From assembly GCA_973895155.1 (NCBI GenBank), contig OZ316893.1, forward strand, positions 17,552,770 to 17,616,769: a DNA stretch of 64,000 nt, read 5' to 3'. Under the pieces are notes generated by a model. That model worked only from the letters and a program-made list of their open reading frames with translations. It was not told the origin of the DNA and searched no databases. The stretch is from Marsupella aquatica. Lineage: Eukaryota; Plantae; Marchantiophyta. A program made the translations under genes and the position numbers. Shown here piece after piece: positions 7,575-64,000 of the stretch (positions are counted from its first letter, which is position 1; each line of letters starts with the position of its first letter).

Positions 7575-8214
7575 GTGTTTGACACACGTCGTGTAACTCG
7601 TTCCACAAAGTTGCTGCCTCCTACTTCTGTTAGCGCTGTTTTGGTTCCTAAATCTCTGCGTAGAAAGATGGAGAACCTCGACACGATTGCGATCCAAGAT
7701 GTTTCGGACTGCGCACTCGCGGAGACTGAGCTCATCTCAAAACATGTCATGTGTTTTGGAAAGGATTCTCGTGGATTTGACAAGGAGCCGCCTCGAATCC
7801 CTCTATGCCGATTGGTTCACATGGAGGTGGTTCGTACTTTGCAGAAAGATAGCTTTTCCATCGAGAAGCTGAAAGACTCATTTTGCAGTATGGGTTACAA
7901 TTCCTCCATAGGAATGCGTTTCTATGTTCAGCCAACGGATGAGAATGGAATTGTTCTGACCTGTACCCAGGAAATTCGTGAGTCATGGGATCCAATTTGG
8001 CAATTGGAGAACGAGAAGTTTGAGGCTGAATGCGAGGCCGATCCAGATTTTCTCGTGCTGAAGGATAAGATGTTCTCTATCTTCGATGGAAATCACCGGC
8101 TGTACTCATGGACGCTTGTTACCGAGGAGAACCCAGACAATCCAAAATACCATCCTTGTGTGCTCTGCACAATATTTAAGGGAGACAAGGGATCTCTTAT
8201 TGAAATTGAGGCAA
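7575..8214 (+). pseudogene. ParB-like/MTase-like accessory gene copy 1, exon 1 (5'-truncated; continues at 31221 after the Sola2-like insertion)
   Basis: KMFSIFDGNHRLYSW motif; homologous to 59239-59972; EIEA|TMHTVN junction is restored when 8215-31220 is removed. Confidence 0.85.
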
Positions 8215-24848: not shown

Positions 24849-25012
24849 TGTTAGAATACACTTAACCCTAACTCATAGAGTGATACAAAGGGGTATATAG
24901 GGACTAGATATAGAGAGTCATGAGACTAGGAGAAGGTAGTTATAAGCCACATTGGCTCATGAAAAGATTATCCTTGTGTTGTTGGTGTATGAACTATAGC
25001 CATCGTCTAACA
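24849..25012 (+). repeat. 3' LTR (164 bp)
   Basis: Lacks CCATCCAATGTGTAACACCTTATAA relative to the 5' LTR. Confidence 0.96.
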
Positions 25013-30180: not shown

Positions 30181-31220
30181 AACCGCCTAACAACAATGAT
30201 GCCAATGCAACAAATAAACCAAACGCACAGCTTACCGAACTCCAAATGTTTTGCAGGAACCGACCGAATATTCAATAGCCGGAATCCCTAAGTAATGGCC
30301 AGAAAAAGAAAACAAATTGGTTCGCACTGCTTGCAGGGAAAACCTACAGTAGACGACGTCAAACTTATTGTTCAAGAAGATGTGGCTCACCACGACTCCA
30401 AGCAGCACTTGAACCAAACTCTGAAGAGACGCAGTCCAGCTTCAAGAATAGTTAGACCAAAAACCACAGTATGATCAGCAAGCGGTGCAAGCTTCAATCA
30501 CCTCCACTCGAATCCCATGCACCAGTCGAGCTTCAGGAATACTTGACAAAAGCACACTACGAACAGCAACCGGCCCAACTCCAATCAGTTCCAATCGGAT
30601 TCCACCGGTGATTCCTCACACAAGCCCAGGTTTAGGAATACTCCACAAACTCTTTGACACTACGAGCAGCAAATGGCCCGTGCTCCAAATGAATCACGGT
30701 CTCCAGTCGCATTCCACACAACAAATCACAGAGAAAATCAGGAAATCTATTGACAAACCTCATTCAGCCTCGAAGGACTCAAACTTAGACTCCACGAAAG
30801 AGTTGACACTAGCTCCAATCGATCAGCCCACACATCGGGGTCCAAAGAATTCAAAATGTGACAAGTTCCAGCATGCGCAAACCAAACACAGAGCTCAAGG
30901 ACAGGCGGGGAAACCAATGGACATACAGAGGTTTCAGGGTGACAGGGCTGAATTTGAAAGTTCGACATTCAGAAACCAATGCTTACTAAAGGACAGCGGG
31001 GAAACCAATGCGCGGCTCAGGCAGGTTGGCGCTTCTTACCCTGCAAAGGACGTTTATAGTCAGTCTCTTTAGCAGTACTTTCAAAATTCAAATGGACTCC
31101 TATAACTTAGATCCTCCAATCCTGGCCATACATTTTCAAAGGACTCAAAGGTTCATAGTGCTTTTTTCCACAGTCCTTTTTGCGTCCTTTGGTACCCCTC
31201 GATCTTGCCATCCACCGCAA

Positions 31221-34200
31221 CTATGCACACCGTGAATTAGTAAGTTCTCATTCTTTTCCGGTACCTTCTTTGAATCTTTCGAGTGTTCTATTTAAGAGCG
31301 CTCGGCGCTGGTTATAGATAAATTGTACTTTGACTCTAACTCGCTGCATCTCTTCGTGTAGGCTTGGCCAAGCCGTTGTTGAGCCATCCTGGATTCTCGA
31401 TGCAGATAGAATCAAACAAATTCTGGCGCATGACCTTGAGTATTACAGTAAATTGATTGACCCGGATAATTTCAAGAAGTTTGAGAGCATTTGGCTAAAG
31501 ACTCGGAAGGGGTCATGGTATACAAAGAAGATGCCACAAGAAGCTCTTGTTTACATTCTATGTGAGAATAAGATAAAGTCCTATTCTCACCAATTCAAGC
31601 TTGACATGGAGGCAGCCGAGGCTCAAGGGAGTCCCTGGTCGGTGGACGAGATTTCCAAATTAACGCCATGCGGCCATGATGAAGGACGCAACCAAAGACT
31701 GGGCAGTGAAGTCCTCAAAAATTATGCCCTTGTTAAGTCCTGAATTTGAAGATTTTCTTAGTACATGTGCAGAAATGTATGCTGTCACAAAGAGAAACAA
31801 GAGAGAGAAGAAGCCTGACACCGTCGTATGTACAATGGACCGCGCCCGATTGTTCAATGCTGTTTTTGCCCTAGACCCAAAGTTGCAAAGCACCCTACTT
31901 GTGGCACATTGCAATCCTGAGTTGCGGAGACAGTTTTTCCACCCAGCAAGTGTTAACGACGACCCAGTCAAACAATGGTGTCATACTTGGATCACTTGGA
32001 ATAGTGTAGAGGGAATTGTTGTCGGCATGTTACATTCATGTCTGCGTGAAGTAGAGCAGACGATGCCCGCGACTAGATTAGAAGAGTGGAATTGTGGTTC
32101 ATTTGATGATCTCGTTCAGTTTGTTACAAATGAATTCAAGAGATATGGTGATTCTGTGAAGAGTAAGTTCTTTCACACTATGTGGCCTTCAAAGTATCCA
32201 GACAAAGAAGACTACACCCAGAAAAACCAGAAGCGGGCTAAAAGGTATCTTTACAAGTTCTACATGCACATGGAGGTAACCAAACCTGATTACTTCTGGG
32301 CATATCCTACAGCTTTCATGAAGTGGATTACAATAAGTGAGGATGACGCCATAGCTGATTTGTACTCCATGTACCCAGCGGAGGGCATATTTCCTCCGAG
32401 ACCTATGACAGAATGGGAGAGAACTCACTGCCCCTGGTATCTAGATACAGATAGATGGGATTCTCCTTTTGATCAAAGGGAGAAAGATGCATTCCATAAG
32501 CTTTCAAAGCTAAACCCACATACCAGCAAAAATTGTGTCCGACATGAAGCAGGGCCTGCTAGACGATGTAGACAAGTCTGCCACTGGCTTGCAAAGTATC
32601 TGTGAAACGACTATTGTTCATGTGGACCGAAGTCAAAAACCTCGAGCTAAAGCAAAAGCGGAGTTAGCAGCACCAAGCGAGTCAACGAAATCTGGGAGGA
32701 AAAGTGAGTATAATGTTCCGTGGTTTGGCCAGCGCCTGGCGGTGGCTAGAACTGTGATGCGAATTCACATTTCTTTCTAGATTCTTAGGCCATCGTTGAG
32801 ACCTAAGTGATTTGCATTTGGTTAGGCGCTAGCTTGTTTCAATACTCGGGATTTACTTGTTCTAACTAAGACCTATTGATAATTTAGGAGGGAGGAAGTC
32901 TAATACAGCGGGAACAGGAGATACTAAAGTGGATGCTACATCTGAAGTTTCTGAGGCAAACACCGGAGCCCGATCGGACCCCATTACTCCTGTCGATAAG
33001 GGGAAAGTAATAGTTCCGGTCGACACCACAAGTACCAAGAAGAAAAGAAAGAGAGCTATCAAAGGTGGACCTTCTTCAAGGGAGAGTGTTGCAGCATCTG
33101 GTGTCCAACGTGAAGTTGGAAACTTCAAAACTAGATTGTCTCGTCATGCCATGGTTGAGACAAGCATATCCGAATTTTTTGACTCGACTTTCAACAAGGG
33201 GGAAAAACCTGATTGGGTTAGTTATGTGGAGAAGTGGGGGAAGGATCTCGTTAAGTCGGGATATAAAGAGAAGGGTGTTGTGCGGGGAGGAAAAGAAAGA
33301 TCGTTTGGAGTGGATGTGGGTTTCATTACCTACCGACCGGGTTCAAACCAACGATCATAGATAAGAAGGTTCCTAAATGGAACACTCCAGATCACTCCAT
33401 GGCTAGATCTTTTTTCAAGTCCATGGATCCATTTCTATCAGATGATGGATTCCTTGCAATTCTACAAATGGGGAGTATGATCCCATGTCTCAAGTCATTG
33501 CTGCCTGTCAGGAATCCAAGAAATTTCAGTGCATATGCACGCATAATGTTGTTATGTCTGTCCCGATGTACGCGGCAAAGACAGACCGTCAGGTAATTAT
33601 GTACTCTTAACTATGTCGCATTTTGAATTATATCTCATTTAACCTGGAGTTGCCAACTGACACTTGGGATTGCTTTCCGCAGATGTTTACCCTCAGGCTG
33701 GACATATTTGGTCGAATTAATGGGAAATGCAAAATTCCCAAAGACCCTAAATTCCGTCCACTCTCCATCAGTGAGGACCCCTCGGTCACCAATTTGATCG
33801 GACTCCCTTCTCTCAAATCCGATCCATTCCCACAAATGGAATTTTCTGGAAATGCTCGCCTGTCTGTTGGGTTTATGCAATCTGTCATTGAGCTTGTCAC
33901 CCGACCTCGTGATATTTTTATGGATTGGACCGCTGGGGCTGGAAGCTCCTTCATTGCTGGAGACTTCTCCGGGAGGTTTGTGCTCGGGATAGAACATAGA
34001 AAAGAATTTATTGAAACCACTTCGAAGGTTTTCATGGATTTTTTGTCTCCCAAAGAGATTGCGTTTTTACCTCCATCTGTTCCTATTGCCGACAGAAAGA
34101 AGCAAGATAAGCTTCGGTCGGTACTCAATTTTGATTCTGATGATGAGTCCAGTGAAGGTGGAGATGGAGAGGAACAAGGTACAGGGGACTCGGAGGAGGA

Positions 34201-34671
34201 AAAGGAAGAACCTCGTCGATCTCCTGATGAAACCGATAGTGATGACTCTTCCGAGTAATGTTCATAAACTTGTAAGCTTCTTTCTCCATTCCATCAAATT
34301 TATAACATTTATGTGTTGTTTTGGAGAAAGGCACCTAACTTGATGGATTTTGTTTGATCAGGTCAGAGTGGAATGCAAGGAGACGTTTCAAACTGCGAAG
34401 GAGGGTTGCTAGACACAACATAGAAACACCAGAAAAACCTTTTGTTCTTCCCTCCTATGCAGAGAAAGCCGCAAGGAAAGCCGAGAGTACAAGGACGCTT
34501 TGCTGGGAAAACAAAGGTCTTCGGTTACGAAGGGGTGTTGACAGGAAGTTCATTAAACATCCTTATGTTGATGACTTCTCCCGCAGCCAGTACGTAGATG
34601 ATGAGGCTGTGTCCACGGACAAATCCGAGAGTTTAGATTCTGGTTCCGAATCAGAATCTGTAGAATTGTGA
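31221..34671 (+). pseudogene. ParB-like/MTase-like accessory gene copy 1, remainder (end of exon 1 and exons 2-5)
   Basis: Colinear with 59950-63570 with the same intron positions; C-terminal MQSVIELVTRPRDIFMDWTAGAGSSFIAGDFSGRFVLGIE resembles the SAM-binding motif of N6/N4 MTases; several frameshifts. Confidence 0.85.
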
Positions 34672-35004
34672 CACGTATTGAGGAATTTAGGGAAAAATCT
34701 TTTACCAGCGCCTGGCGCTAGTACCAACTTGTATTCAAATCCTCTCATTGAGTCCCTATAAATTAATGTCTGATTCCTTGTGTTTTTTACAAGCGCAGGC
34801 GCTCGCCAAATGGATATTCATAAAGTGAATATTTCTAGCTCTTATTTGTGTAACACGGCCGTTTGGTCTTTGTCGTGTCCTACCAACGGTCATCATAATG
34901 AGACAAATAGTAGTCAATACATAGTATAATATACGTTTTGGATACCAACGGCCATTTCATTTAGGTCCGTTAGTTTTCTAAAGAAACCCACATCGGCTGT
35001 ATTC

Positions 35005-35345
35005 GGACGACATTTTTGGATCTCTTGGATGACATATTTGGATCTCTTGTTGACAACTTTTTTGCACGACATTTTTGGATCTCTTGTTGATGACATCTCT
35101 CTCGGATGACATTTTAGGATCTCTTTTTGACAACAGTTTTCAAGGACGACACTTGTCACAGACGACAAGTTTTTGGACAGGGGATTGTTTTGGGACCGAC
35201 GCCCGTTTGCGGCCCGTTTGCGGGAGATACATTTCGGGTGTTTCGCGAGAGACATTTCTCCTAGACGAGATCTTTCGGACCCATGACCATTTTTGGACCT
35301 TTGTGGACCTTTTGCGGACAGTTTTTGTGTTTTTTCAGAGGGGAA
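35005..35345. repeat. Degenerate GACATTTTTGGATCTCTT repeat cluster
   Basis: Four to five imperfect copies at 35009-35125 and related words to 35300; not seen at the equivalent place of copy 2. Confidence 0.65.
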
Positions 35346-35764
35346 GTTGCCACTAGATCGGATTTATTAAACATGGAGAGAAACGGTGAGCTCATGGATT
35401 GGGAGACAGCGTTCCTCCCTTCTCGTGTGCGTCCGGAAGAGAGCCATTTCCGTTCTTTTGAGTCACGGATGGCGACTAAAGAGACTGAAACCTCTACATT
35501 CCGGAACCATCACACTCTACCGTATGATGAAGCTATTAGTCCTGGAGAAAAGAACATCCCATGGATCGTTGATTCTCCTCCGCTCCCATTCACAAGCAAG
35601 TTCTCGTCTCATCAGGCTGTTCCCGTTGATGGTGTACTGCCAATCGATAGGAGAGTTCAAGAAATGTTTGGGTGAGTTGACTTTAAGGACAATAACATTC
35701 CCAATGAAGGTTATACGAGGGCAGTCCGTCGGGGTCCTTCTGAGAGATACATTCGATTGCGTGG

Positions 35765-39465: not shown

Positions 39466-39989
39466 CGTGGTCTTGGATTTAAGAAAAATCAGAGGAGAGA
39501 AGCGGCAGGAGTGGAGGATGATTGCAACTCTGAAAGCTAGATGCAATCACTTATTTGTTGTTAATTCCTCCGGTTTTTCACAAAGAATGGCATCGCATTG
39601 TTCAGTTTGGTGATCACTTTAAGCTAGCACCGAGCGCTGCTTAAGCTCTTTCAATGTTTCGGGATGGAGTTGCCCTCGGCTTAGTTGTTAGGGTTTTTCC
39701 CGGATGTTGTCTTCAGGAATTCCATAGTTGTTCCTGCAGTTGTTGGCTAGCGCCGAGCGCTGCTTTTGTTTTATTGGCAATCCTCAGCCGGGGTCAACCG
39801 TGGCTTCTGTATATCAGATTTCTAGGCCTACAGGTTTTAACTTATATGTGCGTTTTTTGGACCTGCGCTGAATGCGTTATGTACTTTCCATTATATATGG
39901 CAGTTTTATTTTTCCCCTACGCATTTTGACATATATTGGTCTCGGATTTTGTTTATCTCAATTGTGAGACGATTTTATTTGTTGTAAAA

Positions 39990-42060
39990 TATTCCGTCTA
40001 GTCCAATTTCCTTTCACGCAAATTTGATCGTCTTCATTTCTATACCAGTAGTTTGAAACGCGTATTTTGTCCACTTTTTTCATGATCACTGTTCACTGTT
40101 ACCCAAACACTGTTCATTGGTAACAGTTTCTTTTAGCTGATAATAGTAACTGTTTGTTGTTACTGTTATCTGTTTGCTATCGTTTGTAAATTCCCCATTC
40201 ACACTATATCCATGGGAAGTATTATAATTACTCATAATACATCCTCGCAAAAGAATTTTTTTTGTGAGTGTGAGAGACCAAAATAATACTTGCGTTGTTT
40301 CCAACATTCTTCTAGACCTAAAGACCTCAAACAAAACTTGTCACAACAGGAATACTTAAAAATATCTTTAATTTTTTGTTTTTTCAAGTTCGCATTGATA
40401 AGTCTATCTTTTTGAATCATCTGGTCTCTAATTTTTTTGCTTGGTCTTCTCACCTCTACTCTATCCTGTATTGTGTAAGGAGAATTCACACCTCCACTAG
40501 TTTCCATGGGACTCATTGAAGTTAAAACAAAAGTATCTTGATCTTCTCCGGTATTACTTTCACTCTCTACATTTTCTAAGACTGGTTCGTGAGCACTCTC
40601 TAATCCAAGGATCTTTTTAACAATATTTGAAATTACCACAGTCTCTACAGCATCCTCTACGGCATCGGCATCCTACAGCATCCTCTTCAGATTCTTCTGG
40701 AAAAGCAATTGGTACCCGAAGATTTCTTGTTTGAAATATTCTACCTATATTCCTTGGTTCTATCGTAGTATCCCCCACTTGTCGTAATCCTTGCCTTGGT
40801 GTCTCATCTTGACTTGAGGGATCATCTTGACCATTGAATAGTCTCTAAACAACCTTCAATTTCCCTTCTAGCCTTGAATTTTTGGGACAAGTTTGCGGCA
40901 ACGCACTTCGCAACAATCTGTGAGGAATTTGATGGACACCTGTAGCATTTGCTATACTTGATCTCCTTCCTCCCTTCTGAACTGGTCGTCCTACCAAAGA
41001 TCCAACAACCTCACACTGCATTTGCACCAAAGGGCTTTGAAGGCCAAAGTTGACGTTTGATTGACCACTAGGCAAAATCACTGATGGGAATACGGAATGG
41101 GATCCCGACTCATATTTGTCCACTAGGACTTTGAAGTGAGAGCTGCCTCACTTGCGGTTCTACGGCGGCGCTTGACAATTTTTTGTTGTGTAAAACAAAG
41201 TGGGATCCACGGATCCCCTTTCTCATTCCTCCGCCCGAAGCGGCTAACAAAGTTTGTCCATTTTGCAACTCGGGCTCGACATTTGGTAAAATTCCAGGAG
41301 GGGATACCAAGTGGGATCCACAGATCCCGTTCCACATTCCTCTCCCCGAATCAGCAAGCAAAGGTTGTCCGCTTTGCATTTCGGGCTCGCCGTTTGGTAA
41401 AATTCCAGGGGGGATACCAAGTGGGATCCACAGATCCCCTTTTGCATTCCTCCCCCCGAATGAGCAGGCAAAGGTTGCCCACTTTGCAATTCTGGCTTGC
41501 CATTTGGTACAATTCCAGGAGCGAATACCAAATGGGATCCACGGATCCCACTTGGTATTCCACTAATGGAATTTGGTAGCGAAGGAGACAAAATTGGCAA
41601 TCCATGCTCTCCATTCTGCAAACTTTGAGTAGGGATCCCTCTGGGTATTCTCCGTGCGGCCGACATTTCTAGCACCGTCGGACTTCTGATTCGCTCAAAC
41701 TGCGATTGCACACTGGACAAAGCTATCTGGACTCCAGGAGAACACCACATTGGAAAAACCAGAGGAGATCTCTTGGCGGGCCTACATGGTAACATTGTTT
41801 TTGGCATTAGAAACCGAGGCCTACGGTTGGGTGCATTTGGTGGGGTTCGCGGTGAACTAGTCCGACCTAAGGGTATGACAGTGGACTTTCTCCCAAGCAA
41901 ACACCATTTAAGCGGTTTGCTTGGAGAAACATATTAAGATGTTGGAGCTCTAACAACACTTCTCCCAGACTCGGGATCAAACCCTGAACTCTTTGAATCT
42001 GATGAAAATGACATCTCTGGCAAAACTCTGTGTGAGATTGGAAGCTCCTTCATCAAATGA
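39990..42060 (-). pseudogene. 5' part of a second DUF7869/Sola1-like transposase gene, 3'-truncated, with 37-aa repeats
   Basis: IFKYSCCDKFCLR..RKYYFGLSH and QICVKGNWT match VFQVECCTKNCCR..RDEFYGLSH and RLCKEGFWT of the gene at 43779-51250; no catalytic region present. Confidence 0.55.
41088..41561. repeat. 111-bp tandem repeat, each unit carrying the palindrome GGGATCC-NN-GGATCCC
   Basis: TGGGATCCAC at 41201, 41312, 41422, 41533 (periods 111, 110, 111). Confidence 0.88.
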
Positions 42061-42408: not shown

Positions 42409-42938
42409 GGGGGTAGTGAGGATCATCAGTTATCAATCACTGATAATTGATATCAGCGGCTGATATTAGTTATCAATTTTCCACTGAATTTTTTTGAATC
42501 GCAACTGAGCAATTGAGATGACGATTTTGCACTTCCACGCATCTCAGCTAGGCAACTGAGATTGACTCAATCTCAGCTGACCTCGCCGAGATCGGCGTGC
42601 GGACAAAAAAATGAGAAAAATTTATTTTCTTGAAAAATTCAAAACGAGAAAATAATTTGATTTTTTTTTTTACAAAATTCTATGTCCGTACCGTACGGAC
42701 ACTTGGCCATCTCGGTTGACCCCGCCGAGAAGTGATGTCCATACGATATGGACACCCATAGTGAAAAAAATTCAAAAAAGGTTTTTTTTCTTCATCAAAT
42801 TTTGAGAAAAAATTGGAAAAAAAAAATCGCATTTTTTTTGGCGTGCGATCTTGCATGGCGGCCTTTCTAAGATGATGTGGCGACTGATGTCAGGTCAACT
42901 GATGGAAACGACTGATAACTGATGATGTAACTTTACTC
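42409..42938. mobile_element. 530-bp MITE-like insertion (Mutator- or hAT-type)
   Basis: 8-bp direct repeat ACAAGAAC at 42401-42408 and 42939-42946; subterminal inverted ATCATCAGTTATCA / TGATAACTGATGAT; A/T tracts inside. Confidence 0.7.
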
Positions 42939-43010
42939 ACAAGAACCAAATTGATCTTTGAGAGAAAAGAGTATTCCAAAATTGTTTGTTTCTTAAGTTG
43001 AATCAGATTT

Positions 43011-43199
43011 TGGGATCCATGGATCCCGATTGGTATTCAAACGTTGATTTTTTGACGCGGGTGTTCGACAAGGGAAAATTTGGAAGGTTGAATACCAAAT
43101 GGGATCCGTGGATCCCATTTCGTATTCACCCCAACTTTTGGCTGAGTTGTTTTGGGACTTGGGAAATCAAATGGGATCCATGGATCCCTGTTGGTATTC
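43011..43199. repeat. Three long GGATCC palindromes (GAATACCAAATGGGATCC-NN-GGATCCCATTT.GTATTC type)
   Basis: At 43012, 43090-43127 and 43171; same motif as 41523-41560. Confidence 0.85.
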
Positions 43200-49200: not shown

Positions 49201-50222
49201 GGAGACGAACGCGGCAAAGCAAGAGAATGAATCTCTACTAGACCAAGTCCAGCTCCTCAAGATGGACAACGACAGACTCCGTAGGCAGCGGGATGGCCGC
49301 TCCCACTCGGACGGCTCTGGCAAGCACACCAGGCATTAGCGGAGAGTTAGGCTTAGAATAGAACTAGGAGTAGCTAAAACAGGCTGTTAGGACAAGTGCC
49401 GGCCAGAAGATAGCGGCGCTGACACATTAGCCAGCCTGTGTAGAATAGGTTAAACTAATAGGACAAGCCGTAACCAGGTTAGCGAGGATATAAGTTAGCG
49501 TAGATTTGGGCACGAGGCCAGGCTGGTCCTCAGCCCTTAGTATTTAGTAGCCCCCCGATAGAGGCACGGGGGGGGGGGATTTTTAGACTCAGAAGTTGAC
49601 CATTCGCGGTACACACGGGGAGTCCCAAACTTGGTGAAGTGTCGGAGTGCCAAGGGGAGGGTATACGACTAAGCTCGCCGGGTGAGTGCGGAGCCGGGCT
49701 CCGTTGTAGTGTATACTCCTTGGCCTTGGACCCGTTCATTCACGAGGTGTCGGGTCACCCAATCGTAAGTGTATGATCAAAGATGAATAAAATCCTTTCC
49801 CATCAATTCCTTCGTGTAAATCAAGATTTCTGCTTATGTATGAATGCATGTATAAGTCTCGTGTGCAAGTATCAGTGTCGGGCCGAACACGTCATGCCAA
49901 ACGTGCACGGGGTGCAGGTTACGGGTACGGGGTTGCGAGCCCTGGTTGAGCACTTGTACTAATGGATCTAGATCGAAGGCAGTAACACAAAGGCTTAGAA
50001 GTCCGTAAGCCGGGATTGACCTCGTGTCGACTAAGGTACGTTCCGGCGGCGGAACACAAAGCATACCTAAGCGTGCTTGTAAGTAAATGTATGCGCACTT
50101 AGCGCTAGTTTGGGAGAATTATACGCACACCGCACGTCCCCCCTACCCAAACCCAAATACTAACAAGGGAAGTGTCCGTCTTAGACGTAAATAGGCCTAA
50201 GGATTAGGCCAACGGCGTGACA
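46241..50222 (+). mobile_element. Family B TG...CA single-ORF element, copy 2 (3982 bp; first TG mutated to TA)
   Basis: TATGACGC...GGCGTGACA; 5-bp TSD CTTTC at 46236-46240 and 50223-50227. Confidence 0.92.
46715..49339 (+). pseudogene. Family B protein, full span but with many stops and frameshifts
   Basis: ATG at 46715 downstream of TATA-like TATAAAA near 46609; ORF pieces 46630-47793, 47815-48009, 47970-48509, 48519-48749, 48840-49025. Confidence 0.85.
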
Positions 50223-51928
50223 CTTTCCTTGTCCTCAGGATCCTGCGGGTTGCGACGTTGATTATTATAGCCTCGCTTTGGTTTAATGTATGATACAATT
50301 GCTCGCTTGGGATTGAGGAATTTGTTTTAATCCAATAGATTGCTTAACAATTGCATTCCAAGCTCGATCCAAGTTCTTTGCAAAGGCCATTTGATTGTGC
50401 AAGGCATTCCCTCAACAAAATAAGGGAACCTCATCTTTGAGATGTTATTGTTCGTAGCCAGTGTGAGAATATTGATCCCGACATGATCATCTCCAACTCT
50501 CTCATTGTTAATCGATGCTTGAGTGTGAGGATTGGTGATACACCCTCAAGCCAATAGTCTCTCATCATTGTCTCTGTAAATCAAAGCAAACTTCTTGAAC
50601 CACCTACTTCAATCGCTCAGGTCCTTGCTAATGAGTACACTGTCCTGACTGTGGACAGTGTCTCTCGTGGCATCTTGCTCCCCAAAACCTGCTTCCCGCT
50701 CCAGAGGACAATCCTCTTGGTTGTCACTTGGATAAACCAGGCCCTCTTGGTTTTCATTTGGATAAACTGGAAATTTGCTTTCCGCAAGCCTCACGCTGGA
50801 CCGATCCCACATAATTACTGAATTTAAGCTTTCACCCACCAGGTCCGCCCCTGCGTTTGGATAAGGTAGCTTGACAAGATGGAAGAATGCATCCTCAATA
50901 GAAACACTGATTCTATGGTCCCCAATCAGAATGTTGTGGCAAGAGTCCAAGGGAGTAATGCTGAAAATCGTCCCACCCGCAACCGGTTCATCGTTCAAGA
51001 AGAGATGAACTCGATCCCCAAGGGAAAACATATTATAGACCGATTCAAGGTTGACAGTAACTTTGACACAACTGTCGTGTGGACACAAGATGGGAATTAT
51101 TCACCGGCAAGAAAAGAGCAACGACGACAGGTTTTGACCTGGTTTGCCAGAATAGAACATGCACGTCGGTATCCCTCAACACGAGGCTCGTGTAGAATGA
51201 TTAAGGAATACAGTTCATCAGTAGGAAACACAACATGGTTCGATGGCTAGGCGAGCCTCGTGTAGAGCATCAGGTTAAATCTAAACATCTCCCAAAAGTC
51301 ATGGAATTATCACAATCATATGCATTTATGACAAAAAGTCCCACAAGAAGTAAGGAGAGGACCCACTATTGTTCAATGCTTCATTCTAAGAGAGAAGGAA
51401 AGTCCAATTCTTCATTTCCAATAGGGTACAAATCACCAATCCATGTAATATCATATTAAGGAACCACCCAGCTGATAAGTTTTGTTACAATTGAAGTCCA
51501 ATTCCTCAATAGCAAGACATAACCCATGACAAGACCCCCAATTGTCCTCAATTAAGAAGAAATGAAGTCTAATTCTAAAATTAGGGCACTTTTGGAAGAA
51601 ATGAGATCTAATTCCTCTTTGAAATCAAATATCCTATTAGAGTACCCCTATTTAGTAGAACTTCTGAAAGAAATGAGGTACAGATAATTGTCCTAAACAA
51701 ATATTCTCCAAGAGTACCTCGTGTTGTGAATGTGACAGAGACAATGACACGAATGAAATCCTAAAAGGGACGTACCAAGAACCCATGCTAGAAATTGTCC
51801 TCTAAACCATCCACGTCTTGCTAGAGAATGACGAGAGAATAACTAAGGACAACTACCCAATAAATACCAGTCCCAGATAGAAATCCTAAATATACTGCAA
51901 AAAAATGATAGGGTGGCCGCTTTGCCAG

Positions 51929-53260: not shown

Positions 53261-54449
53261 AATATGTGCCCCAACTTTAGAAGATGGTAGTTGAGCGGGC
53301 AAAGTCCATTTTGATTGATTGAGTTATTTTCTGGACGAATTGTCCATTTTTGTGAATAATAAAGTCTTGGAATTTGTTTTGACATCTTGGACTCTGTTCT
53401 AAATCTTCCATTTTTGTTCTTTCCTAGGATTCCCTTATGTTTGTTTCAGCCACCCGCGCCTACCGCAGCCGTTAAGTCAAAGCACTATTAGCCACCAAAA
53501 TCCAATCGTCAATTCATGGTCTTTTGAAATGTGTCTGGAGGGTGACGATTGGAGGTGTTATTTAGGGGGGATTGTTATTGCAAAGCCCAAGAAGTACTTG
53601 AATGTGGTTGCCAATTGTAAGATTTCAAAAGCACCAAAGCACCAAAAGGGGAAGGTCTTTTTGACAGTGACGGTGGAGGATTGCGTTGATTGTGGATATA
53701 GTGAGTTCTCTCTTCTCGTTGAACAATATTGTGGCGCACATTGTCTGGAGCCAAATGATGCAAGAATGAACATAACGTCCTTAGGAGTTTTTTATCCATC
53801 CACTCATCGTTTGGGCATAGCAGTGGAGACAGGAAACAGGAAATTGTTATTGTAAAGGTGTACTATTTGGCAAAGTTTTTCAAAAATTCACGTAAGGAAC
53901 AACCACATACTTAAGCTTAAAATATTCCTACTCCCATAAGACACGACGTCAGATATAAGTGAAAGGTGTGCTTATAGTTGCTCGGAGAGGTTCCAATCCC
54001 TTGTCACTTGCTCAGATTATAGATAAAAAAGGGTTGTCATTCAATTCACTGCTGTTTAGATACAACAACATTTCTAAACAGTCCACTTTGGAATGCTTCA
54101 TTTAGTTCATATACTTCATTAGTGTGTTTTTTAAAAAGCCAAACCTTACAACCCATGGAGGAATGGAGTATGCTCAGGCGGGACCCACCACAAAGCCAAT
54201 TATAGTATGAATTAAGTTATCGGAAACATAGGGGTCTGTCAGGCAGAGTGTGAAACTAGCGCCAGGCGCTAACAAAGGATTAAGTACGCAGAATATAGGG
54301 ACGATAATCAAAGCTTACGGGACCATCCAATGACACTAACCAGATAAAACAATTTTTTTATAAATAAGTTATTGACCAGCGCCCGATGCTAACCAAAACC
54401 ACATAAAAAACTAGAGTAATATCCGTTGACTAAAGACAAAACAACATAG

Positions 54450-57400
54450 TATCCGTTATGGAATACGACACTTAAGGAAAAATCGAGTCCCTCTATAAAC
54501 CATTTGCGTTCTGCCTCTCCAACACAAGTCTGATTTCTCCAACTGTCAAAATTGGCTGGCTACACAGGGTAGACTCCTCTACATGAAACTTGAAGACATT
54601 TATGAACACCTAGTACAAATGTTTACAGGGCATATAAGGCTTGCCGCGGGAATGACGATGGAAGAAATCTTCATAGGAACAAGTAGGGAAGATGCACATT
54701 TGGACAAAGTAAGTGTTTGGGGAGCGAAGGTTCTCGTGAGTCCGTATTTTGAATTGTTTTCCAAAAGCAATTCCACTAATCACATCCCACTCTCCATCTA
54801 GAGTCATAGCTTCTTTTCGAGCCGACTCCATTCGTTTACTGTGAGCCACAGTTAGATTAGAGCGAGGTCTGGAGTTCCTCCCATTCCTACTACGAAGGCG
54901 CACGTTGGGCTCCGCAAAATTGATTTTCTCTGGAAATGTGTTTACATTGATTCTCAAGTCGAATGCAACAGGTACAGTTTGAGTTCGAGAGGTCGCAGCT
55001 GTTTGGACCATAGAGACTCCCTGCACTTGAAGGTACTCTATCTCGCCAGGCGAGAGGTTTGTTCCTTTCACAACTGGCAGGATGTCCGGTACAAGAGGAA
55101 GGCGTTCAACACCACAACACGGGCGGCTCTTGTAGCATGTGCTATTTGGGCAGAACCATATCATTTTGGCAATGGGCGTTCCTCTGAAAATGCAATGTCT
55201 GCTGACAACAATGCCGACAACACCAGCAGCAAAATAGAACCCTACTTTCTTGACACGATTTTGACACTCATCTTTGTGAGAATCTCCATGCAAGGTCCCA
55301 TTACACTGTGGCCCTGCCCCATATTTGGCCGTCCGTCTCAAATGCCAGCTCCCTCTTGGAACGTCCATTTCCAAAGGAGCTGATTCTGTCGGCAAACGTT
55401 GAAGCACAACAGGGGCATTGCGTGGTGGTTGAGATGATGTTGTTTCCCTCATGGCTTCAGGGGTGTTCGCAAAGGAATCACTTTCACTCGTTGAAGTGTC
55501 ACTCCCGCAAAGGTCTACCACACGATCTACTACATTGGTGGGAATGGAAGTGAACTCAATGTTGTTGAGATTCTTCCGTTTGAATCCTTGAGTATTTGGG
55601 GTAGTGATGAGAATGGTGTCATGCCGATGGGAGTCTTGTGGCGAGACAATCCCAGTTGCAAGTCCCTTCCTCTTAACCAATTTGGTGATGATATCTCCAT
55701 TCAGAGGAGAATTCCTACCCAGATCAAAATCGGCAGAGTTGGAAAGAATCATGTGAGTGGCTTCTTCGAATAACTTGGGTGAACCTGCTCGGTCTGCCAA
55801 ACGGAATGCTAATTCCTAGATAGGTGGCCCCTTCCCTCTATCTTTCCGATATGCACTGTAACCCGCAACTTGAGATATAGCTCGATTTTGATCAACTTTG
55901 CATGCTTCAAAGAGACCCACCATTTTTTGGGCTGCCCATGCTTTCATTGAAGCATGTCTTGACTCAGAACCTGTACAGTTTGGAATGAGGGCACTTTCTT
56001 CTGCGCTTTTGCTCTGCAATGAAGTGGATCCAGACCAACTTTAGTCAAATTGTTTAAGCAGCACCAGGCGCTAGCAATGTATATAATATATATTAATATA
56101 ATGTTGCTATTATCAAGTGTTCCTAAGTCATGAATATGGCAAAGTTATCTGTACAGTTTAAAGCAGCGTCAGGCGCTAGCAATGTGTATGATATGATAAT
56201 ATAATGTTGGTATCTGTACAGTTTAAAGCAGCGCCAGGCGCTAGTATAAACACATTGAGAAGTGACTATTGTACGCATTGATAAAACTTACCACGCGAAT
56301 GAAATTCCCCCACTGACGCCATCAAACGACCCACCATGATATCCAACTCTGCAACATCATCAATTTTCCTAGGACACAATTGCCTGCTTGCCACCACAAC
56401 ACAATCTCCCTAGAAACTCGGTACACCGCAACAAACGATGGAGCATTTCGCAATTTCTCCCACAGTCTTAGATGTTCAGGTTGCCTACCCTCCAGTACTC
56501 CCTCCGTGGAATGTCGATGGAAAGACTAGTAAAAGTGGAATGCATCGGAGCGTTCACGTTCAGGGTCTGGGTGACCTCCAAAAAAGACATTGCGAACGGC
56601 AATCCATCCAGTCTGAGCATTGTTGGCCATAAAACCTTGAATGGTAACCTCATGTAACCCATTTTCCTTACAAACCTCTATCATAATTCTCCATGCCTTC
56701 TCAAAGGACTCCGTGTCTTCAGCTTTTAGTTCGCATGTGAATATTATACAAAGAGCTTGAAAGTTGTGATCATAAACGTGTGCGCTAAAAGTAAACCAGT
56801 CGGTTGTCACTCGCTTCATGACATCAAAACTCACCCAAGCCCCTTCCAGTCTTTCGCCAGGTTGCATCTACCGTAGAAGATCTACACCAGATCCATGACC
56901 CTTGACTGACATTTTGAATATGTGGGGCCGATCTGCTAAACAACCCTGACCCGGCAGAAGATACCTTTGGAGGAAAGAAATATTATTTGACCTTTGCATT
57001 CGAGCTAGGAAATCTAACTCACCACGACCAGCCTGGTCCATTTGAACGCTACGACAAAGGGATGCAAATTTCTGAGGAGTAGATAGAACCATTAGAGACT
57101 TCCAAATTTCTGTTTCTTCAATATCTACGATGTTGTCAACATTCTTGCAAAGAGCTTTCACAAGCGAACCAATCGCCGAATTCAAAATCCTAGCCGGTTT
57201 TGCAAGAGGATTGGCTTCGTGATTTCTTTTTATTAAGTCCTCCGCCATCTTTTCAGCGCTCCTCGAGAAAACTTTTGTACTTGGATGGTTATGTTCACCT
57301 ATATGAACCGTGAGCCGAGACATGTGACTACAGGTTTCTGTATCAAGTAGGACCTGTGGATACATATAGAACAAGCGAGCATGGCAAGAGTCCACACAAA

Positions 57401-58312
57401 AAGGAATCTGTTCATAGTAGTGACATACTATATCACCCTCTTCAATGAACGAACCCACCACATGCTGGCCACTAAGCTTAGGGGTACCAGCCCAGGCTTT
57501 TGAATTGCATCTCTTCTTTCACCAAAAATACTCACAGGACTTGTTCCTGCACTCGACGAACCCAGTACAAGTGACTTTACCAAACTCCTAGTGTTTCTTA
57601 GGTTGCACGTTTGCGGTCGTCGGAAAAATTCTGGTCCAAATGTAACAATCTTTGGCACAGTCCATGTCACGAAGTCTGATCCTTTGGACTACATTTCCAC
57701 AATGGGAGGCAATTCAAATACAACATTTTCGTTGTACTTATTTGGCAAACAAGGAACTTAATCGTGTCGGAAGTCCCCTGCCGAGATAAATCTTGACAGT
57801 TCACTATGGCCCGTGGCCTTGAGTAAGGCGTCCATTGCACTCCGCCGGTAAACCTTATGGACACCTCCGAAAGTGGCCACCGATTCACTCTTAAGGCAAC
57901 TAGAGCCTGGAACTTCATGCTTCTCAGGAGGATTGGGTGCAACATCCTCATCTTCACTCTCAGATATTTCAACAACCTGGGGTGGAATGTCCTGAACAAC
58001 CGATTGAAGAGGAGTAGGTCTAACATGAAGCGTGTAACGAAGTCCGACATTCATGTGCCATAAATGTATTCCGTCATCCACATCAAATGCCGCAGCACGT
58101 TCAAGTCCTCCACTCAATGACTCCTCGGGAACAATCGACTCAATGTCATTGATTCTCAAATCAAATCTCCCGCACGGGTAGGTCTCGCTTACTTGCTTGT
58201 AAGTATCAGAAACTTGCATGGGAACCTTGACGACGTCCCCGGTACAAGCACGTGTAATAACAATTGAGCGCGACATTGTAGATGAATGAAGTGAAGGCCA
58301 GAGGAAATTCAT
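54450..58312 (-). pseudogene. Mutator-like DDE transposase with C-terminal SWIM zinc finger; intron about 56040-56290
   Basis: VSFDVMKRV (D1), GFMANNAQ (D2 position mutated), AFHF, NCTGSESRHA (E), SWIM-like PTCSYEDF...PCKHLY; upstream C/H-rich region CHARL..HNHP; stops and frameshifts. Confidence 0.78.
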
Positions 58313-59238
58313 GCACTAACCCAATCTCGACCGTATTGGTTGCACCACCCCTTCAAGGACCACCGGCCGTTAAAAGAGACGTTCCAATACGACAGAGAAC
58401 ATGCACAACTTTGCGTCCGTTGAAATCATAAATGAGACATTTGTCCTTTTTGCCCGGCAAGTGCAGGTGTCAAGAATATTTATTACATGAATACAACTAG
58501 ATAATAGCCTATACAAGTGCGTCCATTTCATTAGCGTCGAGCGCTACCTAAAAATCATTGGAATAACAATGACTTAATTTGAAAAGTCTCGTGACTAGCG
58601 CTTGGCGCTAGCATAATCATACACGAAATATTGATGAATTTGTTTTTCAAAATATTGCATCACAAGCATTTTTAAGCTCAAATATAGTGAATTGGTACTA
58701 GCGCCAGGCGCTAGTATTGATACAAAATACTTAATACCATAATATCAAGTAAAGTTTAGTTACTACGGGTGAAACGAGTACATTTGGAAGTTTGTTAACA
58801 ATATCTGTTACTAAAATAGAACGTTAATCAAATTATTTAAATGGCTAGCGCCGGGCGCTAGCATTTGTTCACCAATAAATTTTTGAATTTAGTAGTCACT
58901 TCTTCGTTAGCGCCCGGCACTGGCATTGCAGGTCTGTCAGAAAGGTGTTGAGACAACGGTAACATTTAACGGTAACTAATGTTTAGCGTGATGATCATGC
59001 CAACATTTTAGCGTAATTCACATTAATACTTATCGCAATTTCTAAATTGTCGCTTTCTGTCACGGATAAATAATATTGAATCTCGTCGTTCACAATGAGT
59101 AACGTCTCTCCAACCGATTACAAAGAGGGGAATAGCACTCATTGATCGGATATAATACGGCCGCAACTGTTAATATGGTATGGAAAACTGGTAATCAGTC
59201 GTGAGAATTCTGTTCGTACACCTTTCATCGTAAAGACG

Positions 59239-62200
59239 ATGGATGCAATCCCCTCCTTGTCGAGGGGGTATAGTGTGGTTGGGGATCAGGATCGTGGGTA
59301 TTGCGAGTCTTCTGAGTCTTCATTCTCTGGTTCAGTGTATACGCATCGAGTAACGAGATCCACCGCATTGCTTATTCCAATCTCTGGTATTTTGTTTGCC
59401 AAGCCAGCGAGAAAGAAGATGGAGAATCTTGACACATTTGCGATTCAAGATGTTTCATTTTCCAAGACGGATCTTATTTCAAAACATGTCATGTCATTTC
59501 GGAAGGATTTCAGAGGGTTTGACAAAGAGCCTCCATGAATTCCACTATGTCGGTTGGTGCATATGGAGGTTGTCCGAACTCTACAGAAAGATAGTTCTTC
59601 CATCGACAAGCTGAAGACTCTTTCCGTAGCATGGGATACAATTCTTTGATTGGAATGAGGTTTTATGTTCAGCCTACCGATGCTGAGGGAGTGCTTCTCA
59701 CTTGTACTCAAGAAATTCGTGATAGTTGGGATCCAATATGGACATCTGAGAATGAGAAATTCGAGGAAGAATGTGTTGCCGACCCAGATTTTTTGGTTTT
59801 GAAGGACAAAATTTTCTCAGTTTTTTACAGGAACCATAGGCTTTACTCGTGGACTCTTGTCACTCAAGAGAGTCCCAAAAACAAAGTACCACCCGCGTGT
59901 GCTTTGTACTATTTTCAGTGGCGACAAGGGTTCGCTGATAGAAATTGAAGCGGCTATGCACACCGTTAACCAGTAAGATACTCTTTTGTGCATAACTTCG
60001 TGAGTCATTGTGAATTGTTCATTCTTTCTAGCATAACTTTCCGAGGCCATGTTTTACGAGCGCCCGGCGCTGCTTATATGTTCTTCTCATTTCGTTCTTT
60101 TATTTCAGGCTTGGACAAGCCGTTGTGGAACCCTCCTGGATCCTAGACGTCGATCAAATTAAGCGGATCTTGATGCACAACCTAGAGTACTATAGTAAGC
60201 TCATCGACCCTGCAAATTACAAGAAGTTTGAGAATTTCAGGATGAAGACGCGAAAAGGATCATGGTACACAAAGAAGATGCCTCAGGAGGCTCTTGTGTA
60301 CATTCTATGTCAGGATAAGATTAAGTCGTATTCGAACCAGTTCAAGATTGACATGGAGTCCGTTGCGGCCCTCGGTACCCCTTGGTTGGTCGAGGAGGTT
60401 TCCAGAAGGCATGCCGTTATGATGAAGGAAGCAACCAAGGATGGGCAGTGAAAACCTCAAAAATCACTCCTTTGTTGAGTCCAAAGTTTGAGGACTTTCT
60501 GTCTACGTGCGCATAAATGTATGTTGTCACGGAGAGGAATAAGCGGGAGAAGAAGCCAGATACCGTGTTGTGTACCATGGACCGTGCCAGGCTTTTTACA
60601 GCTGTTTCGGCTCTTGACGCCAAGCTACAAAGTACTTTGCTTGTAGCACATTGCAATCCGGAGCTCCGAAGACAATTCTTCCATCCGAATAGCGTCAATG
60701 ATGATCCAGTAAAACAGTGGTGTCACACTTGGATTACATGGAATAATGTAGAAGGGATTGCGGTGGGGATGTTGCAATGTGCTTTACGAGAGGTCCAACA
60801 AACCATTCTCGTGAATCGTTTACAAGATTGGGCATGTGAATCATTCGAATCTCTCATTGACATAGTCACGAATGATTTTAGGAAATACGGTGACTCTGTC
60901 AAGGGTAAGTTTTTTAATACAATGTGGCCCTCAAAGTATCCTGACAAAGAGGATTACTCTTTGAAGAACCAGAAGCAAGCAAAATGGGACCTCTACCGTT
61001 TTTACATCCACATGGAAGCTACAAAACCTGATTACTTTTGGGCATATCCCGCCGCCTTCCTGAAGTGGACTGTAATACCGGAGAGTGATTCTTTAGCTGA
61101 ATTGTATTCTATGTATCCTGTCAAGGGAATTTTCCCAGCAAGACCTTTGAGTGAATGGGAGAGAACCCATTGTCCATGGTACCTAGATACAGATAGATGG
61201 GACTCGCCCTTTGATCACAGAGAAAAGGATGCTTTCCATAAGCTGTCTAAGTCCCAGATCCCAGTCAATGTTGTTTTTGACATGAAGCAGGGGCTTCCGG
61301 ACGATGTGGATCAATCCACAACACAATTGCAAACAATATGCGAGACAACAATTGTTCATGTTGACCGAAGCAGGAAGCCTCGCGCCAAAGCAAAAGCAAA
61401 TACTACAGCCCCAAGTAAATCAACAAGATCTGGGAAAAAATGTAAGTATAATTTGTTTCCTTTGGTTAGCACTCGGCGCTGCTATGGCAGTCAATATCTG
61501 TCACATTGTTAGCGCCCGACGCTGCTATGAGAGTCAATATCTGTTACATTGTTAGCGCCCGGCGCTGCTATGAGAGTCAATATTTGTTACATTGTTAGCG
61601 CCTGACGCTGCTATGAGAGTCAATATTTGTTATATTGTTAGCGCTCGGCGCTGCTATGAGAGTCAATATTTCAGAAACTGAATTGGTATTTTTAGTCAAA
61701 AAGTGTATATTTATGGCCAAGTCTTAGAGATAGTTTGGCCAGCGCTGGGCGTTAGCATTGTCTTTGTCTCAATATTAACGGATATCACCTCGGCATCCAT
61801 TTGAACAGGGAGAAAGTCAGACGCCATGGGGAGCGGAGATACAAAGATAGATGCCACCCTAGAGGCTTCTAGAGCCAATACCGGAGCACCATCCGATCCA
61901 ATTACTCCCGCCGACAAAGGGAAGGCGATCGCTCTAGTGGATGCGACCAGTACAAGGAAGAAGAGAAAAAGGACCATTGAGGGTGGATCTTCCTCTTGAG
62001 AAAGTGCTGCTGCTGTAGGTCTTCAGCGCGAAGTCGGGGACTTCAAGAGTAAACTTTCAAGGCATTGCCTTGTTGAATCTAGCATCTCAGAATTCTACGA
62101 CTCAACATTTAACAAAGGGGAGAAGCCTTACTGGTGAATGGTGTAGAGAAATGGGGAAAGGATCTCATGAATTCTGGCTTTGGAGAGAAGGGCATTGTGC

Positions 62201-63570
62201 GTGGTGGAAAGGAGAGATCGTTTGGAGTCCACGCGGGTTTTATCTACCTTCTGACAGGACTTAAACCATCTCTGCTAGACAGAAAAGTTCCGAAATGGAA
62301 TGTCCTTGACCACACTTTGGCCACCTCTTTCTTTCGTGGAATGGATCCATTTTTATCTGATGACGGAATGCTGGCCATTTTACATAACGGGGAGTACAAT
62401 CCGATGTCTCAGGTTACATCGGCTTGTCAGGATTCGAAGAAGTTTCATTGCATCTCGTTACACAATGTTGTCATGTCAGTTCCAATGTACGCGCCAAAGA
62501 CTGACCGACAGGTAAATTTCTCATCGTGACATCTGGTTTGCGGTTCAAAGAATGTTTATGAATGTGTCCATTGACATACCTTTCTTGGGTTATATTACAG
62601 ATCTTCACGCTCAGGCTGGACGTCTTCTGTTGAGTGTCTGAAAAAGGGAAGGTGCCAAAAGACTCGAGGTTTAGACCTCTGTCAGTCACGGAAGATCCCT
62701 CCATAACAAATTTAATTGGACTTCCCTCTCTCAAAGTCGATCCAACACCTGAGATGGAATTTTCTGGAAATGCCCGCTTGTCGGTTGGATTCATGCAATC
62801 TATGATTGAGCTCATCACTCATCCTAGGGATATTTTCATGGATTGGACAGTGGGGTCGGGTAGCGCTTTTGTAGCTGGAGACTATTCTGGGAGGTTTGTA
62901 ATTGGAGTGGAGAATAGGAAAGATTTTGTTGAAACTGATTCCAAGGTGTTCTTAGATCTACTTTCTCCAAAGGAAGTCGAAACTTTGCCACCCCCAATTC
63001 AACCACCCGAAAAGAAAAGGAGAGACAAGCTCCATTCTGTACTTAATTTTGACTCTGACGATGAGTCAAGTGGTGGTACAGCAGACGAAGATGAGGATGG
63101 CACACCTAAGGGGAAGGGTCAGGAACAATCCGCTGGCCAGAGTGACAGCGATGACTCTTCTGAGTAATGTTCTGAAACTCGTAAGCTTCTTTCTCCTTTC
63201 CAGTTCCTTCATGCTTTTGTGCTATCCATTCATACAATTGGTTGACGAACTTCTGTTCTGAGCACCTAGGTCCGAATGGAATACGAGAAGACGCTTCAAA
63301 CTCAGAAGAAAAGTAGCTCGTTTTGAAATTGTCACTCCGGAGAAACCATTTGTTTTTACCCTCTTATGCTAAGAACGCTGCAAGAATGGAAGATAATCAG
63401 AGGACTCTTTGTTAGGACAACAAAGGTCTCCGGCTACGAAGAGGAGTTGATAGAAAATTTGTCTGAAATCCTTATGTGGACAACGTTTGTAGGAGCAAGT
63501 ATGTAGATGACAAGGTGGTCTCGATCGAGAGGTCACAGAGCTCCGAATTGGAATCATTCGATTCTTGAAG
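59239..63570 (+). pseudogene. ParB-like plus N6A/N4C DNA-methyltransferase-like gene copy 2, 5 exons (introns 59973-60108, ~61442-61808, 62512-62600, ~63164-63269)
   Basis: Homologous over its full length to 7575-8214 plus 31221-34671; FLSDDGMLAILH, DWTVGSGSA, GRFVIGVE; GT-AG introns conserved in both copies. Confidence 0.82.
61465..61671 (+). repeat. Intronic 43-bp tandem repeat x5, each unit with the AGCGCCNGGCGCT palindrome
   Basis: Units start at 61465, 61508, 61551, 61594, 61637: GTTAGCGCCCGGCGCTGCTATGAGAGTCAATATTTGTTACATT. Confidence 0.95.
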
Positions 63571-64000
63571 CGTTTTTGCAGCTTAGATTTTACCAGCGCC
63601 GGGCGCTGTTATCATGATACATGTATTTATTATCCCAGATATGATTTGTTTACATTACATTGATAATAAAATGTATTAAATTCCTCATTTCCCTTACTGG
63701 CGCTCCCCAAACGTCTATTTTTCTAATTGTGAATTTTGAATCCTCCGTCCGTTCCTTGGCCCCGCATATTTTGTTGTTACCGGAAACATTCGTCTCTTTC
63801 TCAACGGTCCTTTTTGCGTTGAACCTTGCTATGATACGTTTTTGCTGATCTCCGAACCTAAACTCTCCATTAGGTCACTCTTGCAAGTTATTTTAGGCAC
63901 ATCCTCTCTCGAAGTCGGGTCATTTCAACAACACCGATCTTGTCATTAGCCTCAATTGCGTTTAACAGTGCCCACTAGATGGAGAAGAAGGAGATCATGT

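Follow-up and report, generated by a model that had tools for sequence, protein, structure and literature searches.

The DNA analysed here is a 64,000-nt stretch of the liverwort Marsupella aquatica (referred to below as the window), which is a nest of transposons. Two copies of one of these transposons, designated as the ParB-MTase element, contain repeats of a short palindrome, AGCGCC-N-GGCGCT, together with a gene for a protein resembling ParB and a methyltransferase (MTase). The intact order of features is seen in copy 2, where a transposase gene and the four-exon ParB/MTase-like gene, both broken, diverge from a common promoter. Copy 1 shares 68–74% identity with copy 2 and is interrupted twice. 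A terminal inverted repeat (TIR) element with the target duplication GCAA occupies 8215-31216, and an insertion bounded by TG..CA, with the duplication CGTGG, occupies 35765-39465. The stretch behind the latter insertion presumably still belongs to the element, the equivalent part of copy 2 falling beyond the window end. Contigs of four public sequencing runs cover copy 2 by the thousand at 80–99% identity; contig depth is not equal to copy number, but the family therefore has many copies. The features of both copies are shown in Table 1. Splice sites of the ParB-MTase gene were inferred from GT-AG boundaries and conservation between copies.

The transposase was characterized by eye. It has a zinc-finger-like C-x4-C...HxH stretch, the acidic motifs FD and FMA(D/N), D-x2-H and a SWIM-like CxxC...CKH C-terminus, and the second acidic motif has D in other family copies (variant row at 56624). 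We take D, D, D-x2-H and the zinc-finger-like and SWIM-like stretches to be marks of Mutator-like elements (MULEs), and the putative MULE label of the element is based on these motifs. No Pfam, PDB or plasmid match of the transposase was found. Likewise, no TIRs with the palindrome were found, and the element termini were not located.

Table 1 Features of the two copies of the ParB-MTase element in the window.
Feature	Position	Strand	Remarks
Copy 2 of the element	~54100 to window end		Broken transposase gene (-), divergent promoter, broken four-exon gene (+)
Two sites 3' of the transposase gene, copy 2	54258..54390		54258 exact; 54378 with two mismatches
Broken MULE-like transposase gene, copy 2	54613..58315	-	Motifs read by eye
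Three sites in the transposase intron (~56015-56291)	56060..56242		56060, 56165, 56230
Five sites in the divergent promoter	58533..58921		58533, 58597, 58700, 58847, 58909; cores conserved across family copies
Broken four-exon ParB/MTase-like gene, copy 2	59093..63166	+	Introns inferred at 59973-60108, 61442-61808, 62512-62600
Exact site in intron 1 of the ParB-MTase gene, copy 2	60059..60071		Other palindromes occupy this intron in L002 and L003
Sites in intron 2, copy 2	61465..61753		43-bp tandem array (4.8 units) with five sites; further site at 61741
Short conserved open reading frame behind the MTase gene	63268..63520 (also 34360-34670)	+	No Pfam family
Exact site 3' of the genes, copy 2	63595..63607		Counterpart in copy 1 is 34707
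ParB-like first exon, copy 1	7584..8214	+	Separated from the rest by the TIR element 8215-31216
Exons 2-4 and 3' region, copy 1	31217..35764	+	31297 (intron 1), 32731 (intron 2), 34707, variant 34792
3' region of copy 1, continued beyond the TG..CA insertion	39466..40230		39626, 39749

Distribution and constraint of the palindrome

An earlier reading of this DNA from its letters alone (the sequence-only reading) had reported about 25 copies of the palindrome. Of the 24 positions that it listed, 23 match AGCGCCNGGCGCT with 0–2 mismatches, and 34792 is a variant site whose middle is shorter by one base. A scan of the whole window at up to two mismatches returned the same 23 matches, eight of them exact. 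At up to one mismatch, 18 matches were found; 100 shuffled sequences gave 0.06 on average and never more than 1. AGCGCC-N-GGCGCT ranked first in the window in an unbiased scan for gapped palindromes with 6-bp arms and spacers of 0–9 bp. The longer, 21-bp palindrome described at 58696-58716 is present.

The sites were placed on an exon map made by hand, which comprises 10,699 exon bp and 4,627 non-coding bp. All 23 fall in non-coding DNA of the two element copies, and the ~48 kb of the window outside the copies contains none at up to two mismatches, in agreement with the confinement to introns and spacers claimed by the sequence-only reading. Neither of the insertions nested in copy 1 (23 kb and 3.7 kb) contains a site, and they therefore serve as an internal control for confinement. 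Limitation of the motif to non-coding parts of its own element, a feature of the VANC/VANDAL anti-silencing system, is thus seen at the scope of the window. In both copies, no site lies in intron 3 or in the short intron that follows the stop codon. The sites had also been said to occupy equivalent intron positions in the two copies; this is correct for intron 1, intron 2 and the 3' site, which were probably inherited. Together with the 43-bp tandem array, which accounts for five of the copy-2 sites, these shared positions mean that the sites are not all independent and that the independent count is lower.

The 13-bp core is embedded in a constrained site of ~23 bp with an extended consensus of approximately WWRNY-AGCGCC-N-GGCGCT-RNYWW. 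Counted outward from the core over 38 half-sites, with the tandem array entered once, flank position 1 is a pyrimidine in 36, position 3 a purine in all 38 and position 5 A/T in 36. The left and right flanks vary independently, since complementarity between them amounted to 36 matches as against ~40 in shuffled pairings. The lack of complementarity above shuffled pairings argues against a hairpin and for two half-sites that are read independently; a hairpin or RNA-structure role was rejected for this absence of covariation. The two-fold symmetry and the independent half-site flanks suggest that the site is bound by protein as double-stranded DNA.

Variation among family copies was examined in the promoter (58490-58960) with the four runs. 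Among the 40 variant rows listed of 99, three fall in cores, and all three bring the consensus back at 87–100% of depth, while the remaining 37 all lie outside cores (P ~0.006; 0.003 for G/C positions only). Contig depth over the promoter is highest on the sites. Because the core variants restore the consensus, the degenerate sites of the window mostly represent private decay. These data support constraint on the site across copies, with the family keeping the core while the spacers drift. As the sequence-only reading had noted, the mismatches are mostly transitions of one kind: 19 of the 20 core mismatches are C>T or G>A.

The ParB/MTase-like protein and its relatives

The product of the four-exon gene is predicted to consist of a ParB/Srx-like N-domain, a middle region of ~450 aa without known family and a C-domain resembling amino-methyltransferases of beta motif order. 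Alignment of the N-domain with a profile of 36 bacterial ParB sequences, built for this analysis, was collinear and, in all three tests made, scored above every one of the 40 column shuffles. The aligned blocks (N-domain/ParB) are RIPL/eipv, LkdSF..GY/LaeSI..G, IFDGNHR/IiaGERR, HP.V/IPaiV and E/EN. GxRR is the arginine patch of ParB CTPases; it is not present here, the corresponding patch being DGNHR in 9 of 10 aligned sequences, whereas the strong bacterial ParB hits mostly have GxRR. The look-alike clusters of the N-domain in the Atlas carry DUF3723 (31% of members, score 0.94) and ParB_N (11%), and a match to phrog_1033 was weak (E 0.05). The structure models were poor, with predicted local distance difference test (pLDDT) values of 34 and 48, and no fold match reached Z >= 5; this speaks neither for nor against ParB. 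No match to the N-domain was found by sequence searches of PDB, no relative of the ParB-domain alignment in prokaryotic genomes or viral contigs, and no match of the N-domain relative P0087 in phages. Taken together, we hold the ParB assignment of this domain with moderate confidence. The N-domains P0087-P0094 resemble fungal-DUF3723 clusters by language-model features. It is possible that ParB-like accessory genes are present in several unrelated mobile elements of eukaryotes.

The middle region has 79 relatives at E <= 0.001. Neither a Pfam family nor a usable Atlas match was found for it, and its alignment had no relative in metagenome or viral contigs. Full-length searches for longer homologous proteins found none, which is weak evidence. 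Names were available for six of 20 homologous proteins looked up, from the liverworts Calypogeia fissa and Riccia sorocarpa.

The C-terminal exon matches N6_N4_Mtase (PF01555) at positions 164-219 with E values of 5.6e-5 and 1.8e-3, both under the curated cut-off, as well as DpnA (E 3e-4) and phage methyltransferases. Motif I lies near the C-terminus, behind motif IV and the target recognition domain, as in beta-class enzymes, and reads DWTxGxG. At the position of catalytic motif IV, anchored by a shared PKW...SDxG block with weak anchor scores, copy 2 has YL(L/P)TG, P0062 has DLPT and P0043 has SVGT; copy 1 is frameshifted there. The catalytic (D/N/S)PP(Y/F/W) is thus found in none of the three readable sequences, and this degeneracy suggests a pseudo-enzyme whose methyltransferase domain is probably inactive. 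No ParA-like family was found among the 26 open reading frames (ORFs) scanned. The ParB-methyltransferase part is likely of prokaryotic origin.

A metagenome scan gave 188 candidates, two of which are loci (L002 and L003) with relatives of the ParB-MTase gene and with intron 1 at the same codon position. Their identity to the window gene is 63% (L002, over the ParB exon) and 40% (L003). The 816-bp intron 1 of L002 contains 13 AAGCCC-NN-GGGCTT sites at up to two mismatches, which form an array with a period of ~20 bp. It also contains five AGC-N7-GCT sites, one of which is a perfect AGCTCC-G-GGAGCT, and no palindrome of the window type was found in L002 at under two mismatches. Its half-sites number 43 in the intron versus 3 in 1,116 exon bases. 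In L003, ATCTCRGC-N7-GCCGAGAT occurs twice in the 229-bp intron 1, which was reached by none of 100 shuffles. Both relatives with intron 1 in view therefore have a palindrome different from that of the window element, with RGC-N7-GCY common to all three motifs. Co-diverged motifs in sister families, which the sequence-only reading had proposed looking for, are thus seen in these two loci. Different palindromes in the same intron of related elements are likely landing sites of an element-encoded protein. Another candidate, L001, a double site in a phage contig, was rejected as a coding coincidence within a gene.

The L003-type palindrome also occurs in non-coding DNA of the window, at 42570 (21 of 23 bases), at 42709 and, in a weaker third form, at 42541. 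No ParB gene was detectable beside the sites at 42570 and 42709. In prokaryotic genomes its pattern was found in only ~2,600 stretches over 596 Gb. The segment 42430-42760 is a cluster of several other palindromes including this type. It may be what remains of a sister ParB-MTase family, or else the distal end of copy 1.

Candidate proteins for the site

Because the palindrome is private to the family and co-diverges with it, we infer a binder encoded by the element. Summed over the candidates, binding of the palindrome on double-stranded DNA by an element-encoded dimer is judged quite probable. Since the motif varies with the ParB-MTase gene, the product of that gene is preferred over the transposase. 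ParB-type proteins and split-site methyltransferases both read palindromes. Our best explanation, tentative at a probability of about 0.4, is that the palindrome is used for VANC-like self-marking and is recognized by the ParB-like protein of the element as a dimer, its methyltransferase domain probably being catalytically dead. The dimer would bind the palindrome on double-stranded DNA, and the bound protein would label the members of its family and, like VANC, maintain their activity. Sites would build up only where coding is undisturbed, would expand by tandem duplication and would decay by C>T after a copy is methylated and dead. Within this scheme, protection from host silencing would be the least supported step. 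It is unlikely that liverwort transposons have gone as far as domesticating a prokaryotic ParB-methyltransferase fusion as a nucleotide-gated clamp. Such a clamp would load at family-specific parS-like palindromes in introns of its element, slide along the element and shield it from silencing by host 5-methylcytosine (5mC). It would amount to a parS/ParB system in a plant nucleus, in which co-diverging proteins and sites form an anti-silencing code that is orthogonal and programmable.

Several observations weigh against self-marking by the ParB-MTase product. The TIR element at 8215-31216 has 15 matches to AAGGACT-NN-AGTCCTT, densest at 13189-13522, and the region beside a DUF7869 gene has seven GGGATCC-NN-GGATCCC; neither of these transposons has a relative of the ParB-MTase gene. 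Family-private palindromes are therefore not a pointer to ParB specifically, and transposases or other accessory proteins can account for them. The N-domain has no Pfam ParB match, its hhalign probabilities for ParB are only 3–16%, and no helix-turn-helix (HTH) was found behind it when the first 170 residues of nine exon-2 proteins were compared with a ParB+HTH profile. RGC-N7-GCY carries little information, and the co-divergence comes from two short contigs of one metagenome sample, of which the L002 array, with its several palindrome registers, could be an inserted repeat. The promoter variant rows are a subset (40 of 99), and a core may also attract contigs that come from other sites. Decay of the sites by deamination implies that these copies were methylated. 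Finally, the CpG observed/expected ratio of non-coding DNA follows no gradient with distance from a site, being 0.70 up to 100 bp, 1.11 between 100 and 300 bp and 0.78 between 300 and 700 bp, and there is thus no sequence trace of protection from methylation.

Two claims of the sequence-only reading are modified by these data. Absence of the motif from other elements holds for AGCGCC-N-GGCGCT, but two of these elements have private palindromes of their own. As for a self-recognition module, constraint, independent half-sites and sister-gene divergence speak for it, whereas ParB as the binder is called into question by the ParB-less transposons with palindromes.

CpG retention near the sites was considered as a sign of hypomethylation and rejected, because no gradient was seen and the ratio was 1.2 in the promoter but 0.25–0.27 in two site-rich introns. 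With the sites masked, the divergent promoter (58320-59092) has a ratio of 1.2, compared with 0.28–0.82 in seven other non-coding stretches, which is a weak hint of lower historical methylation there.

The MULE-like transposase is the second candidate, a possible but doubtful binder. It would bind through an N-terminal zinc finger to sites spread from subterminal regions to introns and the promoter for synapsis or autoregulation, and the ParB-MTase gene would be cargo. The motifs of En/Spm TnpA are a precedent for such sites, and the domesticated MULE proteins FHY3/FAR1 bind GC-rich CACGCGC. The two ParB-less DNA transposons with private non-coding palindromes, the three sites inside the transposase's own intron and the C-x4-C...HxH stretch, which is of FAR1/WRKY-GCM1 kind by eye, would all suit this role. 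Most sites, however, lie deep in the element and not at an end, motif-bearing TIRs were not found, and L002 and L003 differ from the window element in both the ParB-MTase gene and the motif. A host transcription factor exploited by the element for its expression would explain the clustering of five sites in the divergent promoter, and purifying selection with double-strand symmetry suits any dimeric factor. We nevertheless consider it improbable, as no site lies in the ~48 kb of other elements and a motif that differs between sister families is not favoured by a conserved host factor.

M.MwoI is a beta-class enzyme that forms N4-methylcytosine (4mC). An active methyltransferase of the element that writes 4mC or N6-methyladenine on its own DNA, thereby blocking host 5mC or marking self, would fit the presence of GC-N7-GC, the MwoI site (PMC3458533, in excerpt), within all three motifs, and would also fit the beta motif order and the matches to N6_N4_Mtase, DpnA and phage methyltransferases. 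Over 46 half-sites, the MwoI-type C is mutated once versus four times for its CpG partner, a difference that is not significant, and 4mC is in use in a liverwort (bioRxiv 2021.02.12.428880, in excerpt). Such activity is nonetheless hardly expected from three readable sequences without the catalytic motif and from a motif I of DWTxGxG, and the constrained site, at 23 bp, is longer than expected for an enzyme of this kind. Still less probable is a binder encoded by another small ORF, either 63268-63520/34360-34670, which is 64–83% conserved between the copies, or the ORF starting at 35373. VANC is likewise a separate accessory gene; these ORFs, however, are short and have no domain call and no sign of a DNA-binding fold. 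The ORF at 35373-35764 and 39471-39540, in the 3' region of copy 1, contains an intron, and its frame apparently resumes across the insertion. Dispersal of a neutral repeat or a small hairpin through slippage and gene conversion would account for the tandem array, the local duplications in the transposase intron and the minisatellite-like L002 array. It is the least credible alternative and largely refuted: cores are conserved across copies while spacers vary, and flanks are position-constrained, not copied, and show no compensatory pairing.

Other observations concern the neighbouring transposons. The TIR element at 8215-31216, with its 4-bp GCAA duplication, contains a DFSENY-type putative transposase (9411-12902), presumably Sola-like. 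Its minus strand has an accessory gene of several exons (30186-25939), one of them RING-like. The GGGATCC-NN-GGATCCC sites lie at 41200-43190 beside DUF7869 gene pieces, four of the seven in a 111-bp tandem repeat, and a pair of outward-facing inverted repeats of 27 bp lies at 42165-42191 and 43054-43080. Two related TG..CA-bounded elements (35765-39465 and ~46243-50230) are 75–82% identical and contain long ORFs without Pfam family. The segments 2522-7199 and 16758-21358 are inverted copies with 97–99% identity and a 1,209-codon ORF of no clear family; the latter lies within a Copia-like element (14950-25014). Weak Pfam rows with E > 0.01 in several ORFs were taken as chance.

Known systems and implications

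The bacterial ParB-parS system shares with the liverwort element a ParB/Srx-like N-domain, putative in the liverwort protein, and multiple dispersed palindromes on the same replicon. The liverwort gene differs in having GNHR in place of GERR, an insertion of ~45 aa in the domain, no HTH detected and no ParA seen, and it is a eukaryotic, intron-containing gene in a transposon. With GNHR and no HTH found, the element is not a canonical ParB-parS system, and the parS analogy of the sequence-only reading, resting on an N-domain that matches ParB weakly, is not upheld. TnpA of En/Spm, from the CACTA superfamily, is an element protein that binds repeated motifs in both orientations, mostly subterminal, and affects methylation; the palindromes here lie in every large non-coding interval of the element and are not mostly subterminal.

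The layout most resembles that of VANC/VANDAL, an Arabidopsis MULE. VANC21 binds YAGTATTAY, which occurs in tandem in its own element, namely in introns, intergenic DNA and the terminal regions, and VANC6 has other motifs (PMC5735166, in excerpt). Common points are a MULE-type element (assigned by eye in our case) with an accessory gene, a short motif in non-coding parts, tandem amplification and other motifs in sister families (PMC5735166, in excerpt). In contrast to the 13–23-bp palindrome here, VANC motifs are 8–9 bp and non-palindromic (YAGTATTAY and AGTTGTCC, in the excerpted text). The accessory protein of the liverwort element, a putative ParB-like/MTase-like fusion, is set apart from VANC by its domain content and is probably unrelated to it. 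Since protein and motif differ, the element is not classed as VANC despite the like layout. Binding and demethylation have been shown for VANC, while the liverwort element is known from sequence only.

ParB joined to a DpnA/MboIIA-type amino-methyltransferase is found in phage ParB-terminase-locus methyltransferases and their eukaryotic derivatives (group-1 clade 6, and a chlorophyte-type Dam with ParB-type HTH; PMC4738411, in excerpt). In comparison with these clades, as excerpted, the liverwort protein has ~450 extra residues and a degenerate catalytic motif. The ParB-linked clades occur in haptophytes, chlorophytes and chytrids, and none is described for land plants, a land-plant transposon or a MULE in the excerpts of that paper (PMC4738411). 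Marchantia MpDN4MT1a/b have a prokaryotic-type beta-class amino-methyltransferase fold in a liverwort as well; MpDN4MT1 is a host sperm enzyme with TSPPY, whereas the protein here has no such motif, includes ParB and belongs to a high-copy transposon (bioRxiv 2021.02.12.428880, in excerpt). DUF3723 is a conserved cargo of fungal Starships and, like the present gene, a conserved accessory gene of a eukaryotic mobile element, the likeness being one of Atlas clusters and not of alignment-level homology; neither a methyltransferase domain nor a target motif is described for it in the excerpted text (bioRxiv 2021.12.13.472469). No account of the element or motif was found in the literature searched, supplements aside; the supplement of Iyer 2016 could list such a clade.

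Overall, the palindrome appears to be a real, selected and family-private site, and the system a variant of transposon self-recognition with a candidate binder. The best understood case of a transposon-encoded protein that counteracts silencing in a sequence-specific manner is VANC of Arabidopsis; how a short motif gives an element-wide effect is left open in the excerpted parts of the VANC paper (PMC5735166). If the favoured explanation is true, the liverwort element would be another such system, of independent construction and from an early-diverging land plant. Convergence of the strategy would thereby be demonstrated, and a ParB-fold protein would offer a testable spreading mechanism. As the palindrome is long and differs between families, binding specificity is testable directly with three natural protein-site pairs. 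If the binder were only the transposase, this would be an ordinary subterminal-motif story, and the literature searched would still offer no description of the ParB/MTase-like cargo gene. Family-private palindromes are common among the DNA transposons here, which suggests that they characterize the DNA transposon families of this genome in general and may be used for delimiting families and finding their regulators.

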